A stretch of DNA of 62,797 nucleotides, filler included, from Stramenopiles sp. TOSAG23-6 (GCA_900128565.1; 24 parts of 24 records of this genome joined end to end with filler, not necessarily neighbours in it), one strand, 5' to 3'; positions 55-57,785 are shown, numbered from the whole stretch's first letter. The notes: a model not told the origin generated them from the letters alone. A program made the numbers and translations.

Positions 55-145
55 TTTTTTTTTTAAATTAATTTTTTTTTTTTTTTTACATTTAAATTTT
101 TTTTTTGTTAGGTACGAAATTATCTATGATTTTTTTTAAACGTAC

Positions 146-1543
146 ACCTTTAATATCCACATCTTCAATCAGTAATTTTTTTTCAACTAAAGTATCAGAA
201 TTATTACTAGGGTTAGGGTTATTATGGTTGTTAGGGTTAGGGTTCGAATCAGTTGAGAGGGTAGTGGAGACAATTATCGAAGGATCTTCATTTTTGATTA
301 TTTCTTTCAAACATGAAATTGCTTTTTTTGATACATTTCGATCTTCCCAAGTTCCGCCGCGATTCCAGGAACTTTTTTCCAAATTTTTTTTTTCCAGATT
401 TTTTTTTTTTTTTTCCAAATTTTCTTTTTCCAATTTTTTTTTTTCCAGATTTTTTGGATTTTTGTCCAAAATTTTTTTATTCTCCAAACTTTTCTTTTCT
501 CTTGATGGATTTATAGTGTTATACTTACTTATACGACTACGATACGCTCTATGCTTTTTTACACTGTCTTGATTGGTACAAGCAGTTCTGTGCTTAGGTG
601 TAGATGTGCTACTTGCTGTAGTAGTACAAGTAGGGCTAGGGTTAGGGCTATCACCAACTGCGCATTTTTGTTGATGTTTCGTTTTAATTTTTTCTTGTAT
701 TTGATTTAAAATGTAATCACATATTGCTAACAAACCTCCATTTGGTTTTATTAATGCAACATTTTGATGTTTAGTGTCAACCACTTTAGCATTGTCAACA
801 TTTTGAGTAACCAATGGCCCTGAAATCAACTTTATTAACCGTTTACGAGATGTTTTTAATCGTTGTTCATCTTTTTTATCTAAAAGATTTGCTAATAATG
901 CACTTTTCATTTCACATGCTAAAGCATCAAGTTCATTATTTCGTGTTTTCTCAATATTGTGTATAATAAGTTTTGTTTCGTTTTCGATGTCTGACAAAGT
1001 CATACTGTTGACATGTTTTTCATTTATTCGTTTCGGATGAATTTGTATTTGAAGTGTATTTGTATTTTGAGTATTTTGAGTATGTTCATCATCATCACTA
1101 TCAATCACATCGGCAAATTCATCAAACGTATCCCATTTTGATTGTCGTTTGGTTCCATCTGAAGTGAAGAAATAATAATCACTGTTCAATGGACTCCCTG
1201 ACTTTTTTGATTTTTTTGTCTCCAACTTTTCTAGCTTTTCTAGCTTTTCTAACTTGGCAGTTGGAATAGCCTTGAATAATTCAAATATCCTCCTTTTGTG
1301 TATATTTAATCGATATTGAATATCTCGTAGTCGTTTTTTGTACTCTTTCCGTGTACTATTTTGTTTTTGAAGACGTTGACGTTTCATCAAGTTTCCATCC
1401 CAGAAGTACAACAAGGCATCTCGAACATCTTGACGTGTACACACAACGAATAGAGACAATATACCAACACCTACAAGTACTTTGCGTTTTGTATCCAAAC
1501 CTAAAAGTAGTTTACGTTTTATATCAAAGAACATAGCATTCAT
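146..1543 (-). CDS. Protein with N-terminal hydrophobic segment, coiled-coil/low-complexity middle and start of an Aha1 N-terminal-like domain (3' partial)
   Basis: Long ORF; SSWNRGGTWEDRN resembles the SAWN.AGTWEEK motif of Aha1_N proteins; interrupted at 145 by a family intron (GGT|GTACGT..GTACCTAAC). Confidence 0.55.
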
Positions 1544-1854
1544 CTGACAATATGATAGGTTAAGTATGCAGAATGTTTTTATATTTGCTGTAACAAAATA
1601 TACGTACAATATACAGGTAATAAATACATTGGATTGGAACACTTTTTTTTTTTATTGATTTCATTCATTGGTTGGTTTTTTAGATTTTAGTGGCCATAAA
1701 ATATCAACGGTATTTCGTGGTTTTAAAAGTCCCAGATTTCGTGGCCTTGTGTTGAGTACACGAAAAAAACAATTATTTGTAAAAATACAAATATTGTCAT
1801 TTTATCAAATATAAATCATTTATTTAATACCTACAAAGTATAAATATTTTATTT

Positions 1855-2426
1855 TTAAAAATCTTTCTCAGACACTAAAATACAATTCAAATTTTTCAAA
1901 AATCGAGCAAAATAAATATTGTAGGAAAATATTTTTTTCAAAAAAAACTCAAAATTTGTTAGGTATAAAATTTCGTATGAAAAAAAAAAAAAAAAAAATT
2001 TCAAAAAAATTTCAAAAAAAAAAATGAATACACGAAAAACGTACATAAATCTGGATGTATTGACGAAACACCCGAACCCTTCAATTGCTCCAATTGTTTC
2101 CTAAACCCCCATTGGGTGCAACAATCAATTAATGAAATTTGATAAATTTCAGCATAATTTGTAGAAAAAAAACAATTTTGAGAATTTTGAAAATATTGTA
2201 AATCCAAATGTTTTGTGTTTTCGTCAAATGAATTTTTTTTTGTTTTTATATTTTTTATATTTTTTTCATTTTTTTCGTTTTTTGCTAGATTTCGTGGAGT
2301 AAAAGGACGAGGAAATTTTATATTTTTGTATATACATTTACATACTAAAGCACGTTCTTGTATACAATTTGCCCATACTATTGCATCAGTGTTGTCTTGG
2401 GCAACTAATGTTAATGACGTCATTGC
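1855..2426 (-). CDS. Terminal exons of an unidentified gene (possible end of a PH domain)
   Basis: Exon 2045-2426 is open and bounded by family intron ends; LTLVAQDNTDAIVWANCIQ resembles a PH C-terminal helix; last-exon frame is ambiguous. Confidence 0.35.
1912..2044 (-). other. Family intron, AT|GTACGT...; 3' end at 1912 or 1914
   Basis: Contains CATACGAAATTTTATACCTAAC and ATATTTTCCTACAATAT; no AG at the end. Confidence 0.65.
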
Positions 2427-2480
2427 ATATAATTTGAAAAATATTTCAAATATTTTTTTGTTAGGTACAAAATTGTATAC

Positions 2481-55079: not shown

Positions 55080-56446
55080 AAGAATGAGAAAAAAGAAACA
55101 AAAACAAGAGAAAAGACAAGAAAAATTGGAGCTTTAACATATGAACATGACTTGACCATTACTAAATATGTGAATGGAAAAAGAATTAATATCGACGGAA
55201 AGTTGTCTGGTGTAGTTCCGAAAGAAAATGCTTGGGCACATTTCAAAAATGGATGTTCGCTACGTTTACTCTGTCCTCAAGCTCATTTAGACGGTGTTCA
55301 TAAATTATTGAAGAATCTTGAAGGAGCATTTGGTTGTTTTACTGGGGCTAATTCTTATCTTACACCTCGTGGTACGCAAGGATTCGCACCACACTATGAC
55401 GATATTGAAGCGTTTGTTTTACAATTAGAAGGACGTAAATTTTGGCGAGTGTATTCACCTGTTAGTGAAGGCAGAACATTGCCACGTTATCCATCGGCTG
55501 ATTTTTCACAAGATGCTTTAGGATCTACTATTATTGAAACTGAAGTTGTGCCGGGGGATTTACTTTATTTCCCTCGAGGGTTTCCCCATCAGGCTATTGC
55601 TGTTGATGATGAGGATTCACTTCATCTTACTGTTAGCACTGCTCTTCATAATACATGGCAAGACTTACTTGAACTGATAATACCACAATCTTTACAATCA
55701 CTGTGTGTTTTCATCATGAATTTCAAATTTATTTTATTTTTTCATACGAAATGTTGTACCTAACGATTTTTTTTTGAAATATTTTTTCAAAATACATGTG
55801 TGTTGATGATTTGACATTTCGGACATCACTTCCTTCAAATCTGCGAGATATTGCAGGTGTGATTCACTCGGATGGTTTTGAAAACGAATCAATGATAATT
55901 CAAAGTAAAATGTATTCGAAATTACGTGAACAATTTCGTGCCAAGGCTAAAGGTTTGCTACAGCGTGTCGCAGAGACTGCTTTTGAATCAATTGATGCCG
56001 GTGTAGATCAATTTCTTAGGAAAGCACTTCGAGGACGAATGCCCCCAGTACTTCGTATCCCAAGTATTGAGTCAAAAGAATTAGAAAAAATGGAAAAACG
56101 AAATAAATTAGCGTCGGAGAGGTTGCGATCAAAGACAATGCTGCGACTTGCTAGACACGACTGTGCAACAATGGCTATTGAGGAAGGTAATGCAGTAATA
56201 TATCATTCAGCTAAAAATACATGTAGATATTTAGAAGCCGAAGAAACTCCTATTGTGATGCCTCTTTCTGCCGCCCTTTCCGTGGAATATCTTATAAAAG
56301 CCTATCCAAAATGGACTTCTGTGTCTGATCTTCCGTTCGAAGTTGAGTCTGATTCTGAAGAAAGCGAAAGTTCTGAAAGTGAAATACAAATTAATTGGGC
56401 TCGAGAATTAGTCAAAGCTGGTGTGTTGCACACCCGAAAAGGATAA
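55080..56446 (+). CDS. RIOX1: JmjC ribosomal oxygenase NO66 (5' partial; exons 55080-55702, 55798-56446)
   Basis: GCSLRLLCPQ, GANSYLTP..QGFAPHYDDIEAFVLQLEGRK.W, GDLLYFPRG..HQA, SLHLTVS. Confidence 0.93.
55703..55797 (+). other. Family intron CT|GTGTGT...ATACAT
   Basis: Join PQSLQSL-CVDDLTFRTSLP fits NO66 spacing; the intron contains no AG. Confidence 0.88.
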
Positions 56447-56509
56447 ATTATTTGTTTTCGTTTTTTTTATTTTTACTTTATTTCAAATACATGATATTTT
56501 AAACATATG

Positions 56510-57589
56510 CTACATACATTCCCTAACAAAATCTGGTCTGACATGTTTCTCTTTATCTCCATCATCATATAGAATATCATAAGTGCCTTTTTTTTTTCTA
56601 TACTTTGTGATAACACCAGGATACCACCTATTTAGACCTCTATGTCGAGCTTCAATTTTATCACCTTTTCCAAATATCTTGGATTTCCCTTCCAATATAG
56701 ACTTTCCTATAGAACTTTTTTTTGGATCATTGATGCCTTGTGCAATTGTCGAAACTCCATATTCCAAGGCTTGAAGCCGCCGTGCCATTGCTGCATCGTC
56801 CTCACTCTGCAACTTTGCATTTTGTTTATCTTGTTGCTTATATAGTTGCCATGCTAATGCTTCATCTTGAATCATTTGATCAGTTGTATTAATTTGTGTA
56901 CGACTACTGAAAGAATCGTGATTCATGTCGTCTATATCAGCTTCTAAAGCTTGTGTTTTCCCCTCTGATGTGGTTTTTGACTCATTCATTTCATTTAACT
57001 CATTGGTTTTACTATTTTTCATCTTTTGAGATATTCCCACTTTTTTGGATTTCTTAAGGAGATCAGGTAAAACAAGTAACTGGGTCTCGTCTACAATACC
57101 ATCCGTCGTCCAGGCTCTCCTGTACTTATCATATATTATAGTACCAGGTGAAAGCTTACCAGCGACTGTTTTCTTTCGAATTTTAATTAAAAGTTGATTG
57201 TTGTATTTTTTAAGCTTCAATATTTCTGATTCAATTTGCTTTTCCCGTTTCTTTTTCTGCTTTGCTTCTTTAAGCAATTGCTTCTCCAGTTTTTTATTTG
57301 TTTTAAGGCGGGCCAACTTCTCTTGTTTCGCCAGTTTTTCGCATTTATAAAATAATTTCAATTCTTCCTTCGACATTAATTTGATCATGTCCCATCTTGC
57401 TTTTGTTTCCTCCAATTTTTCTTGTCTTTTCTCTTGTTTTTGTTTCTTTTTTCTCATTCTTAATTCCATAAGCTTTTTTTGTTCTTCATTCCATTTTGCA
57501 TTTGTTTTTCCACCATTAATTAATGATGAAATCTCAGCAGCACTAGTACTAAAAGAGTTTAATACTTCAACTTCTCTGCAGTCCATTTC
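56510..57589 (-). CDS. Coiled-coil protein with a C-terminal Tudor-like domain (5' partial)
   Basis: GDKIEARHRG..RWYPGVI..GTYDILYDDGDKE. Confidence 0.8.
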   Translation of the reverse strand, partial: EMDCREVEVLNSFSTSAAEISSLINGGKTNAKWNEEQKKLMELRMRKKKQKQEKRQEKLEETKARWDMIKLMSKEELKLFYKCEKLAKQEKLARLKTNKKLEKQLLKEAKQKKKREKQIESEILKLKKYNNQLLIKIRKKTVAGKLSPGTIIYDKYRRAWTTDGIVDETQLLVLPDLLKKSKKVGISQKMKNSKTNELNEMNESKTTSEGKTQALEADIDDMNHDSFSSRTQINTTDQMIQDEALAWQLYKQQDKQNAKLQSEDDAAMARRLQALEYGVSTIAQGINDPKKSSIGKSILEGKSKIFGKGDKIEARHRGLNRWYPGVITKYRKKKGTYDILYDDGDKEKHVRPDFVRECM

Positions 57590-57785
57590 NNNNNNNNNNN
57601 NNNNNNNNNNNNNNNNNNNNNNNNNNNNNNNNNTTAATTAATTAANNNNNNNNNNNNNNNNNNNNNNNNNNNNNNNNNNNNNNNNNNNNTATTGTGAAAA
57701 AATATTTCAAAAAAAAATCGTTAGGTACGAAATTTCGTATGAAAACCAAAAAAAAAATTAAATTAGAAATTCATATAAAACATAC

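Follow-up and report, generated by a model that had tools for sequence, protein, structure and literature searches.

A window of 62,797 nucleotides (nt) from Stramenopiles sp. TOSAG23-6 (GCA_900128565.1) contains a family of short repeated elements that interrupt unrelated genes, among them genes for a quinone oxidoreductase, RIOX1/NO66, FGAM synthase, a HECT domain protein, a Mo-co (sulfite oxidase-like) protein, and a protein kinase, and most of these elements appear to be introns that end in AT in place of the usual AG. The window, by which we mean the whole stretch of DNA that was analyzed, consists of 24 contigs of 2503 to 2534 nt each, sorted by length, and every joint is made of 44 N, a 12-nt stop spacer, and another 44 N. 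The G+C content of the pieces ranges from 25 to 40%, and the assembly is fragmented and amplified. Pieces 15, 16, and 17 (36765-39282, 39383-41900, and 42001-44518) are one contig in triplicate with 2 differences, and the elements of this contig were counted once. An exon of the quinone oxidoreductase, which is encoded there, has a best database match that is 96% identical and is named by its source as a coding sequence (CDS) of a MAST-3 assembly, and all five RNA runs with words in common with the window come from seawater metatranscriptomes. We treat the host as a MAST-3-like marine stramenopile, a label that comes from the source's name for this protein match and not from a phylogeny.

The repeat is laid out as GTATGT, T-runs, CGTACGAAATTTTGTACCTAAC, and AAATATTTTTCCAAAATACAT, and is 85 to 212 nt long. 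Its 22-nt core gave 16 matches at three or fewer mismatches versus 0 in 100 shuffles, and the 5' motif, the core, and the 3' motif were found together, in the same order and on a single strand. A profile built from 18 copies returned 56 matches at E values of ≤1, corresponding to about 35 distinct loci when the triplicated contig is taken once. By hand curation, which replaced a far too permissive automatic pairing of loose 5' and 3' motifs, 22 distinct copies are complete, 2 have one unclear end (11047-11165 and 40-145, both on the minus strand), and at least 13 more are cut by contig ends or N runs; the 24 complete elements counted in a preliminary description of this DNA agree with the first two classes taken together. 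Copies of the family contain 15 of the 48 contig ends (hand count), as would be expected if the assembler broke at a high-copy repeat. The window had 0 matches to Rfam at gathering thresholds, and a search that was not exhaustive found no clear intron outside the family.

Alignment of 18 copies resolves four conserved blocks separated by T-runs of varying length. The first is GTATGTTTTA; the second, CAAATTCGAAT, is optional and, like the 22-nt core, recurs across unrelated genes; the third is C(G/A)TACGAAATTTTGTACCTAAC; and the fourth, (TAGAAA)ATTTTGAAATATTTTTCCAAAATACAT, belongs to a conserved 3' block terminating in ...AAAATAC. The donor of the elements is GTATGTTTT. A branch-point-like box (TACCTAAC; CCTAAC or close variants) is present in all 18 aligned copies at a median of 44 nt before the end, with CTAAC lying 27 to 57 nt before the end except in one composite copy (111 nt) and one copy where the motif was mis-picked; by its sequence and position, this box may function as a branch point. 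Every copy with an identifiable host open reading frame (ORF) lies in the sense orientation and none was seen in antisense, just as the preliminary description had claimed, and its view that GTATGT and CTAAC resemble U2-type signals likewise holds. The last 21 nt of the element (AAATATTTTTCCAAAATACAT, e.g., at 49336-49356) are free of stops in all three frames, with the result that ORF finders read from the intron into the next exon; this is probably a matter of chance, yet it adds to mis-annotation.

The ends of the elements are close to uniform. Of 31 distinct loci with a readable 3' end, a hand count gives 27 ending in AT, 3 in AG, and 1 in AA, close to the 19, 2, and 1 first noted, and the AT ends divide into 21 CAT, 4 TAT, and 2 AAT, one of them being uncertain (E17, a complete minus-strand copy at 1916-2044 reading AT/GTACGT ... 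ACAATAT; here and below, a slash marks the border of an element and individual copies carry E numbers). Position -2 of the intron is A in all 31. Among 28 readable 5' ends, GT is found in 25 and AT or AC in 3, mostly within GTATGT, GTACGT, or GTAAGT, and the last two bases of the preceding exon are AT in 22, CT in 2, AG in 2, and TT in 2. The AG-ended copies, all three complete, are E3 (10870-10972, plus strand; AT/ATATGT..ATATAG/, i.e., AT..AG), E6 (48127-48338, plus strand; AG/GTATGT..AAATAG/, GT..AG), and E21 (12745-12876, minus strand; AG/GTATCT..ATACAG/, canonical GT..AG), of which the last two have an AG flank as well. The AA case is a degenerate minus-strand copy at 52821-52933 that ends in ACAATACAA/ and is separated by a 15-nt stretch from a complete copy on the same strand (52705-52805; TT/GTATGT..ATACAT/). 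This stretch between the two copies (52806-52820, minus strand), GTGGACCATCGATTT, would be a micro-exon if both are introns.

For the interrupted genes to code, their sequences indicate that the elements must be removed, and removed exactly. In 18 of 18 copies that are complete and have coding sequence on both sides, retention of the element leads to a stop after 3 to 69 codons. Removal at the usual boundaries joins the longest upstream and the longest downstream open frames in 15 of the 18 under a strict reading (binomial p = 2e-5, with a chance of 1/3), and since E7 (48843-48973, plus strand; AT/GTATGT..AATAAAT/) and E8 (49040-49140, plus strand; AT/GTATGT..ATACAT/) lie on either side of a 66-nt exon and fit when taken together, the count of joined frames rises to 17 of 18, with E12 as the one true exception. 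The quinone oxidoreductase carries three of the elements, all on the minus strand and repeated in pieces 16 and 17: intron 1 (E27, 37453-37547; AT/ATATTT..ATACAT/, readable as AT..AT or AT..AC, phase 2), intron 2 (E28, 37255-37373, phase 0, within INY-K), and intron 3 (E29, 37066-37170, phase 0, within GGDY-L; repeats at 39684-39788 and 42302-42406). Spliced in silico, it aligns with 10 homologs without a gap at any of the three junctions. RIOX1 with E14 removed (55703-55797, plus strand; CT/GTGTGT..ATACAT/, phase 2, with the 8-nt repeat TGTGTGTT at both borders) is collinear and gap-free with 8 homologs, one of them at 74% identity; against human NO66, alignment of the upstream exon ends at residue 266 and that of the downstream exon starts at residue 269, with three more residues in register. 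The exon after E9 (49254-49356, plus strand; AT/GTATGT..ATACAT/, phase 0, within Y-RFLG) begins at position 41 of the HECT profile, Pfam profile coordinates being otherwise too coarse for exon collinearity. The junction at E2 (6162-6246, plus strand, complete; AT/GTAAGT..ATACAT/, phase 1, within WAWTR-W) was compared with solved structures, for which the downstream exon had no usable match. The claim that removal restores conserved motifs in unrelated proteins was borne out, with frames joined in 17 of 18 copies and collinearity with homologs at the three quinone oxidoreductase junctions and the one in RIOX1.

An AG acceptor fits none of the four junctions checked against homologs. E14 and E29 contain no AG from intron position 20 to 45 nt downstream, and 8 of 15 AT-ended copies have no AG that would preserve the frame. 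Where an in-frame AG does exist downstream, as in E28 at +18, its use would delete residues present in the homologs. An AG follows the branch-like box in 7 of 18 copies, at 10 to 17 nt in six and at 61 to 75 nt in the composite E5; its use would shift the frame in E4 (47590-47723, plus strand, complete; CT/GTATGT..ATACAT/, phase 0), E8, and E9 and would create a stop in E1 (5541-5652, plus strand, complete, in the Mo-co gene; AT/GTATGT..ATACAT/, phase 2) and E7, so that in the cases checked such AGs would have to be skipped. That nearby AGs give stops, frameshifts, or loss of conserved residues had been stated before, and these cases confirm it. The database CDS P0001 (96% identical), a model based on canonical sites, has 12 additional residues at junction 1 of the quinone oxidoreductase and an altered junction 2 and reads into intron 3; it is wrong at all three junctions, and hence a canonical-only gene model fails here. 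Introns without an AG acceptor are, on these comparisons, well supported.

The five seawater metatranscriptome runs contain 5 to 13% of the sampled words of 47237-57236, and contigs of four RNA libraries were placed on one contig of the window, 47237-49753, which holds six complete introns. The contigs placed per run numbered 813, 777, 84, and 1295; they cover almost only the elements, many of them having two possible placements. Copies of the family are plentiful in seawater RNA libraries of two studies. Similarity of the RNA-library contigs to the window is lost exactly after 48022 (...ACAT), the end of the complete two-unit composite E5 (47852-48022, plus strand; AT/GTATGT..ATACAT/), and the consensus of these loose ends is AAAATACAT, followed by other exon sequence. 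A metagenome scan with the core motif gave 8 loci, of which 7 are chance matches in unrelated sequence and 1 (L001), on a contig too short for a frame test, is a true copy with the same ...ACAT end; a scan of viral contigs gave 0. Systematic sequencing error, which the preliminary description had named as a possible source of the AT ends, is unlikely, since the same end recurs in the independent metagenome contig and in the RNA-library contigs. The nearly bare exon cover is uninformative either way on the splicing of this gene.

The last two exon bases equal the last two intron bases in 17 of 22 complete copies, usually as AT. The two AG-flanked copies, E6 and E21, are both AG-ended, compared with 1 of 20 others (Fisher p of about 0.013, calculated by hand), and this 2-nt direct repeat looks like a target-site duplication. 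Inside it lies an inverted terminus, GTAT...ATAC, of 4 nt, or of 6 nt with the AT flank (AUGUAU/AUACAU), in most copies. We propose, with a probability of about 60%, that the elements are spliceosomal introns derived from a non-autonomous, transposon-like Introner family and are cut out so that the intron begins with the G of GTATGT and finishes with the duplicated dinucleotide. Insertion of an element would duplicate a target of 2 nt, which is AT in most cases and AG in some; the intron would then consist of the element plus the second target copy, and cutting before GT and after the duplicated dinucleotide would restore the coding sequence exactly. The intron end would thereby be the target dinucleotide itself, AT in most copies and AG in a few, and copies would survive inside genes only in the sense orientation, where the major spliceosome would remove them. 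On this view, position downstream of the ...ATAC block together with A at -2, and not an AG, would determine where the 3' cut falls, and the host splicing machinery would have to accept U as the final base of the intron. Removal by the spliceosome at GT..AT is likely, judged from donor, branch box, and orientation, and the mobility of the family may be read from the repeat at its borders. A farther-reaching version, held tentatively and at somewhat less than even odds, is that the major spliceosome of this MAST-3 lineage no longer needs a terminal G and cuts two bases past ...AAAATAC, with A at -2, bypassing AGs that lie 10 to 17 nt after the branch point, such that the duplicated dinucleotide becomes the intron end. 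Routine splicing without an AG acceptor had been suggested at the outset; of this, the need for removal and the impossibility of an AG at the testable junctions have stood, whereas the spliceosome as the agent and an altered 3' splice-site recognition are what we infer.

Several observations weigh against this proposal. At E12 (51936-52067, plus strand, complete, in FGAM synthase; AT/GTACAT..ATACAT/), the sole copy whose usual boundaries fail to join long open frames, removal at those boundaries leaves 13 codons before a stop, and a different frame stays open for the 59 codons that precede the next intron. Five boundary options lie within 2.3 bits of one another (32.6 to 34.9 bits against a profile of 70 homolog segments), and tblastn with 7 homologs was equally indecisive. 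The frame conflict (52068-52245) adjoins a near-repeat at about 52095-52125 (CAGTTACAACAT and CAACTACAACAT), which could hide an assembly or amplification error (an indel); alternatively, the boundary may be unusual. U at the last intron position is disfavored in model spliceosomes. The transposon signals are thin: the inverted terminus is 4 to 6 nt and the direct repeat 2 nt, the end stem AUGUAU/AUACAU is weak (6 bp, about -3.8 kcal/mol) and forms part of the minimum-energy fold in 8 of 18 copies, the statistic for the direct repeat rests on the two AG/AG copies, and a search of 10 large ORFs of the window revealed no transposase. Among the joints listed for the four RNA runs on contig 47237-49753, where exons are almost uncovered, none is an exon-exon joint, and at least one RNA-library contig runs from the last 30 nt of an element into the exon, which may reflect unspliced RNA (pre-mRNA) or contaminating DNA. 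No near-identical transcript-derived protein was found for three genes among proteins of 0.55 to 1.75 times the query length; the genome-derived P0001 aside, the best matches are 57 to 62% (P0002 to P0120), 66%, and 74% identical. Finally, the register of the cut is ambiguous. With AT before GTATGT and AT at the end, most copies yield one and the same mRNA whether they are cut at GT..AT, TG..CA, or AT..AC, for which reason RNA reads alone cannot separate these registers there. E4 and E14 have CT as the flank; cutting two bases farther left there keeps the frame, puts AT for CT in the mRNA, and changes one nonconserved residue, and homology at these two junctions is compatible with it.

The alternative that fares best, though we regard it as unlikely, is that the same introns are removed by the spliceosome but cut two bases farther left, from the dinucleotide before GTATGT to ...ATAC, and so are mostly AT..AC. 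It is established that AT-AC introns can be processed by the major spliceosome, and the known compatible pair of a first A and a last C would let the second step proceed with 3' site recognition unaltered. The mRNA would be the same as that from GT..AT in 14 of 17 tabulated copies, two of which (E17 and E26) would be AT..AT, and E27, which begins AT/ATATTT, is tidy only as AT..AC or AT..AT. Larvacean introns ending in AC or AT do occur (PMC13326754). However, this register makes the ends less uniform: AT would stand at 22 of 28 readable 5' ends and AC at about 22 of 31 readable 3' ends, whereas the GT-first register gives 25 of 28 with GT and 27 of 31 with AT. The donor would become AUGUAUGU, unlike the consensus commonly given for U2-type AT-AC or U12 donors, the three AG-ended copies read GT..AG in the GT-first register only, and E4, E14, the copy at 52705, and E32 have CT or TT before the GT. 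The GT-first register is the only one to accommodate all copies with near-uniform ends; it agrees with the universal donor consensus and makes ordinary GT..AG introns of the three AG-ended copies. We favor it roughly three to one over an NN..AC rule.

Removal by something other than the spliceosome, either precise DNA excision resembling that of ciliate internal eliminated sequences (IES) or structure-guided cutting and joining of RNA as in euglenids, through the inverted termini, is improbable. The termini are indeed inverted repeats, with cut sites 2 nt apart across a possible end stem, the boundaries depart from GT-AG, and intron-bearing sequence is abundant in RNA libraries. Yet sense-only orientation, a GTATGT donor, and CTAAC at a spliceosomal distance would have no role in DNA excision, the boundaries are AT and not TA, and the assembled DNA carries the elements; as for RNA, the end stem is weak and missing from the best fold in 10 of 18 copies, and the CAG/CTG signature known from Euglena (PMC12501133) is absent. 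Least probable of all is that the elements are never removed, being part of decaying pseudogenes or having AT ends through assembly or amplification artifacts: the fragmented and amplified assembly, the frame conflict at E12, a dynein gene in the window with a deletion of about 76 codons and a change of frame, and the unspliced element-exon contigs in RNA libraries would fit it, but the flanking exons are open with compatible phases in 17 of 18 copies and retain conserved residues and spacing, the ...ACAT ends recur in an independent metagenome contig as well as in RNA-library contigs belonging to two studies, and three identical contig copies agree.

The remaining copies are as follows. From the left end of the window, the weak profile match at the contig start (40-145, minus strand) has the 5' end AAAG/GTGTACGT at 145 and an unclear 3' end; E18 (2427-2534, minus strand), whose 5' part is cut by the contig end, has the 3' end TATAT/; and E19 (4669-4771, minus strand), in the protein kinase gene, has the 5' end AT/GTATGT, the rest being lost to an N run. 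Downstream of the N run that interrupts E19, the minus strand carries at least 4 tandem copies of a 25-nt unit (TCACACGATTTTATATTTTTGTTTA) at 4560-4668. E20 (5116-5168, minus strand) is a 3' part ending ATATAT/ and is cut by a contig end, and a composite plus-strand copy (10530-10724) has lost its 5' part at the contig start and ends AATTAAT/. The minus-strand copy with an unclear 5' end (11047-11165) ends in CACAATACAT/; in this region (10974-11165) the genes are convergent and their 3' ends seem to overlap, the last plus-strand exon after E3 lying within about 100 nt of the minus-strand copy. E22 (12949-13057, minus strand) is a 3' part ending ATACAT/ that a contig end cuts, and E23 (13517-13697, minus strand), in an ion-transport gene, is complete with an internal N run (AT/GTATGT..ATACAT/). 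A plus-strand 3' part at 15786-15860, cut by the contig start, was recognized by core motif and profile.

Farther along, E24 (20896-20938, minus strand) is cut by a contig end and has the 3' end ATACAT/, and E25 (21039-21098, minus strand), a 5' part in an H1/FKBP gene reading AT/GTAAAT, is cut by the contig start. A complete copy at 28928-29028 (minus strand) reads AT/GTACAT..ATACAT/; E26 (29371-29483, minus strand, complete), AT/GTACGT..TATATAT/ in phase 1 within GHRRTP-W, contains AACCCTAACCCTAA; E16 (33757-33872, plus strand, complete) reads AT/GTACGT..AGTACAT/ in phase 2; and E15 (33961-34045, plus strand) is a 5' part (AT/GTATGT) with an exact core motif, cut by the contig end. On the contig that also carries E4 to E9, the plus-strand E0 (47237-47290), a 3' part cut by the contig start, ends ATACAT/, and E10 (49666-49753), a 5' part, begins AT/GTATGT and is cut by the contig end; an AT..AC cut of E4 would give a different mRNA. 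Around FGAM synthase, the plus strand carries E11 (49854-49985), a 3' part that precedes an exon of this gene and ends ATACAT/, and E13 (52246-52366), a 5' part (AT/GTATGT) cut by the contig end. E31 (54926-54979, minus strand) is a 3' part ending ATACAT/ and cut by a contig end, and E32 (57690-57785, minus strand), in an ankyrin gene, is a 5' part (TT/GTATGT) cut by the contig start.

Two further features of the window were recorded. Telomere-like (CCCTAA)2 12-mers occur 31 times at one or no mismatch against an expectation of 0.08 for the whole window, for example at 231-242, 11901-12566, 20556-20567, 37347-37358, and 49599-49610. Judged against the ORF list, they appear mostly on the sense strand of the host gene, and within ORFs they are translated in frame as NPNP; at such a site the quinone oxidoreductase carries 4 inserted residues that are absent from all homologs, and the motif also occurs within introns E26 and E28 and, as a palindrome, in E6. 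In an axonemal dynein heavy chain (7901-8778, minus strand), the alignment to the solved chain 8glv_Lc jumps from residue 1836 to 1913 near 8291 with a change of frame. This break was considered as an ordinary control intron and rejected, being a deletion of about 76 codons; the gene is either a pseudogene or an amplification or assembly chimera. Dynein pseudogenes have been reported in one MAST-3 lineage by a published study.

If confirmed, the family would offer a clean natural case of transposon insertion interacting with splice-site choice, and it raises the question of how a 3' splice site is specified in introns that lack a terminal AG and pass over internal ones. If the farther-reaching version holds and the window is representative, one Introner family would have made nearly all of the genome's introns, numbering in the thousands, GT..AT, and published gene sets would be badly truncated. 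Gene predictors that accept GT-AG only mis-model these genes, which would explain the failure of standard prediction in this organism, and functions inferred to be missing from such genomes may partly reflect annotation failure. A MAST-3 single-cell study describes few predicted genes and one lineage whose complete protein matches were too scarce for training a gene finder (PMC5778133), which fits the mis-modeling of the quinone oxidoreductase CDS; the main text of that paper contains nothing on splice sites. Our literature search, which did not extend to supplements such as the gene-prediction tables of PMC5778133, found no report of noncanonical introns in MAST-3 or Nanomonadea.

Compared with canonical U2-type GT-AG introns, the elements have the GT donor (25 of 28) and, as a matter of sequence, the branch motif (18 of 18), and lack the 3' AG, which is found in 3 of 31. 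U12-type introns have the donor consensus RTATCCTT and a branch box, TCCTTAAC, 10 to 20 nt from the 3' end. The AT..AC register of U12- and U2-type AT-AC introns is formally possible for most copies; the donor, however, is not RTATCCTT, the branch box lies 27 to 57 nt from the end, and several copies cannot be read as AT..AC without a changed mRNA. By this generally known consensus, the elements are not U12-type introns. Ciliate IES have TA borders, show no strand preference, and are absent from somatic DNA; the elements differ from them in having AT borders, in lying in sense wherever the host is known, and in being present in assembled DNA. The nonconventional introns of euglenids and hemistasiid diplonemids have non-GT-AG borders and pairable ends as well, but their borders are variable, their end pairing is strong, Euglena has a CAG/CTG code, and a conserved donor or branch box is lacking in the introns as described (PMC12501133, PMC12621601). 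In the window, the end duplex reaches about -3.8 kcal/mol and appears in the best fold of 8 of 18 copies, and CAG/CTG is absent at the required places.

Introners are transposon-derived introns of Micromonas, Aureococcus, Chrysochromulina, Symbiodinium, and others (Gozashti et al. 2022, PMC9860276). Like them, the present family consists of many similar short putative introns in unrelated genes, more AT-rich than the exons, whose removal would leave mRNA length unchanged, and the element would carry one splice site while the duplicated target would give the other, much as Chrysochromulina Introners carry the 5' site and co-opt the 3' site (PMC9860276). Sequence shared beyond the splice signals by unrelated genes, one of the properties expected of Introners, is evident in the 16 core matches versus 0 in shuffles, the four blocks, and the roughly 35 loci. 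The known families described there differ in ending in AG, starting with GT, GC, or GA, and having duplications of 3 to 9 bp, (PMC9860276), whereas the apparent duplication here is 2 nt and the co-opted end would be AT. Introner surveys started from annotated introns (PMC9860276, PMC12130899) and, as one of them describes, dropped families with unfamiliar splice sites that lacked transcript support (PMC12130899); a family like the present one would consequently have been missed.

Amoebophrya, a parasitic dinoflagellate, likewise has repeated introns with inverted end repeats, direct repeats at the borders, and noncanonical dinucleotides, together with failure of gene prediction (PMC7789003). 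Its inverted repeats are 8 to 20 nt and its direct repeats 3 to 5 nt, it has no dominant pair of end dinucleotides, and its introns have RNA-seq support (PMC7789003), in contrast to an inverted repeat of 4 to 6 nt, a direct repeat of 2 nt, and one dominant pair in the window family. With repeats this short and borders this nearly uniform, the elements are not introners of the Amoebophrya type. Introns of the larvacean Fritillaria borealis with AC or AU at the 3' end are excised by the major spliceosome, and they have been discussed as possible descendants of introner transposons whose splice sites were weak (PMC13326754). GT/AG accounts for less than 10% of its introns, which have several non-AG 3' ends (AC, AT) and mostly non-GT 5' ends, and duplicated, diverged U2AF subunits or paralogs have been implicated (PMC13326754). 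The non-AG 3' ends and the setting in marine plankton are shared with Fritillaria (PMC13326754), and the difference is that the window holds a single family with one dominant class, GT..AT, and a canonical-looking donor and branch box. Such a near-uniform class would lend itself to dissection better than the mixed classes found in Fritillaria or Amoebophrya, and it lies in a stramenopile, a group for which we found no such report. Because transposon-derived introns without AG ends are known in both of these organisms, the present family extends a known phenomenon.

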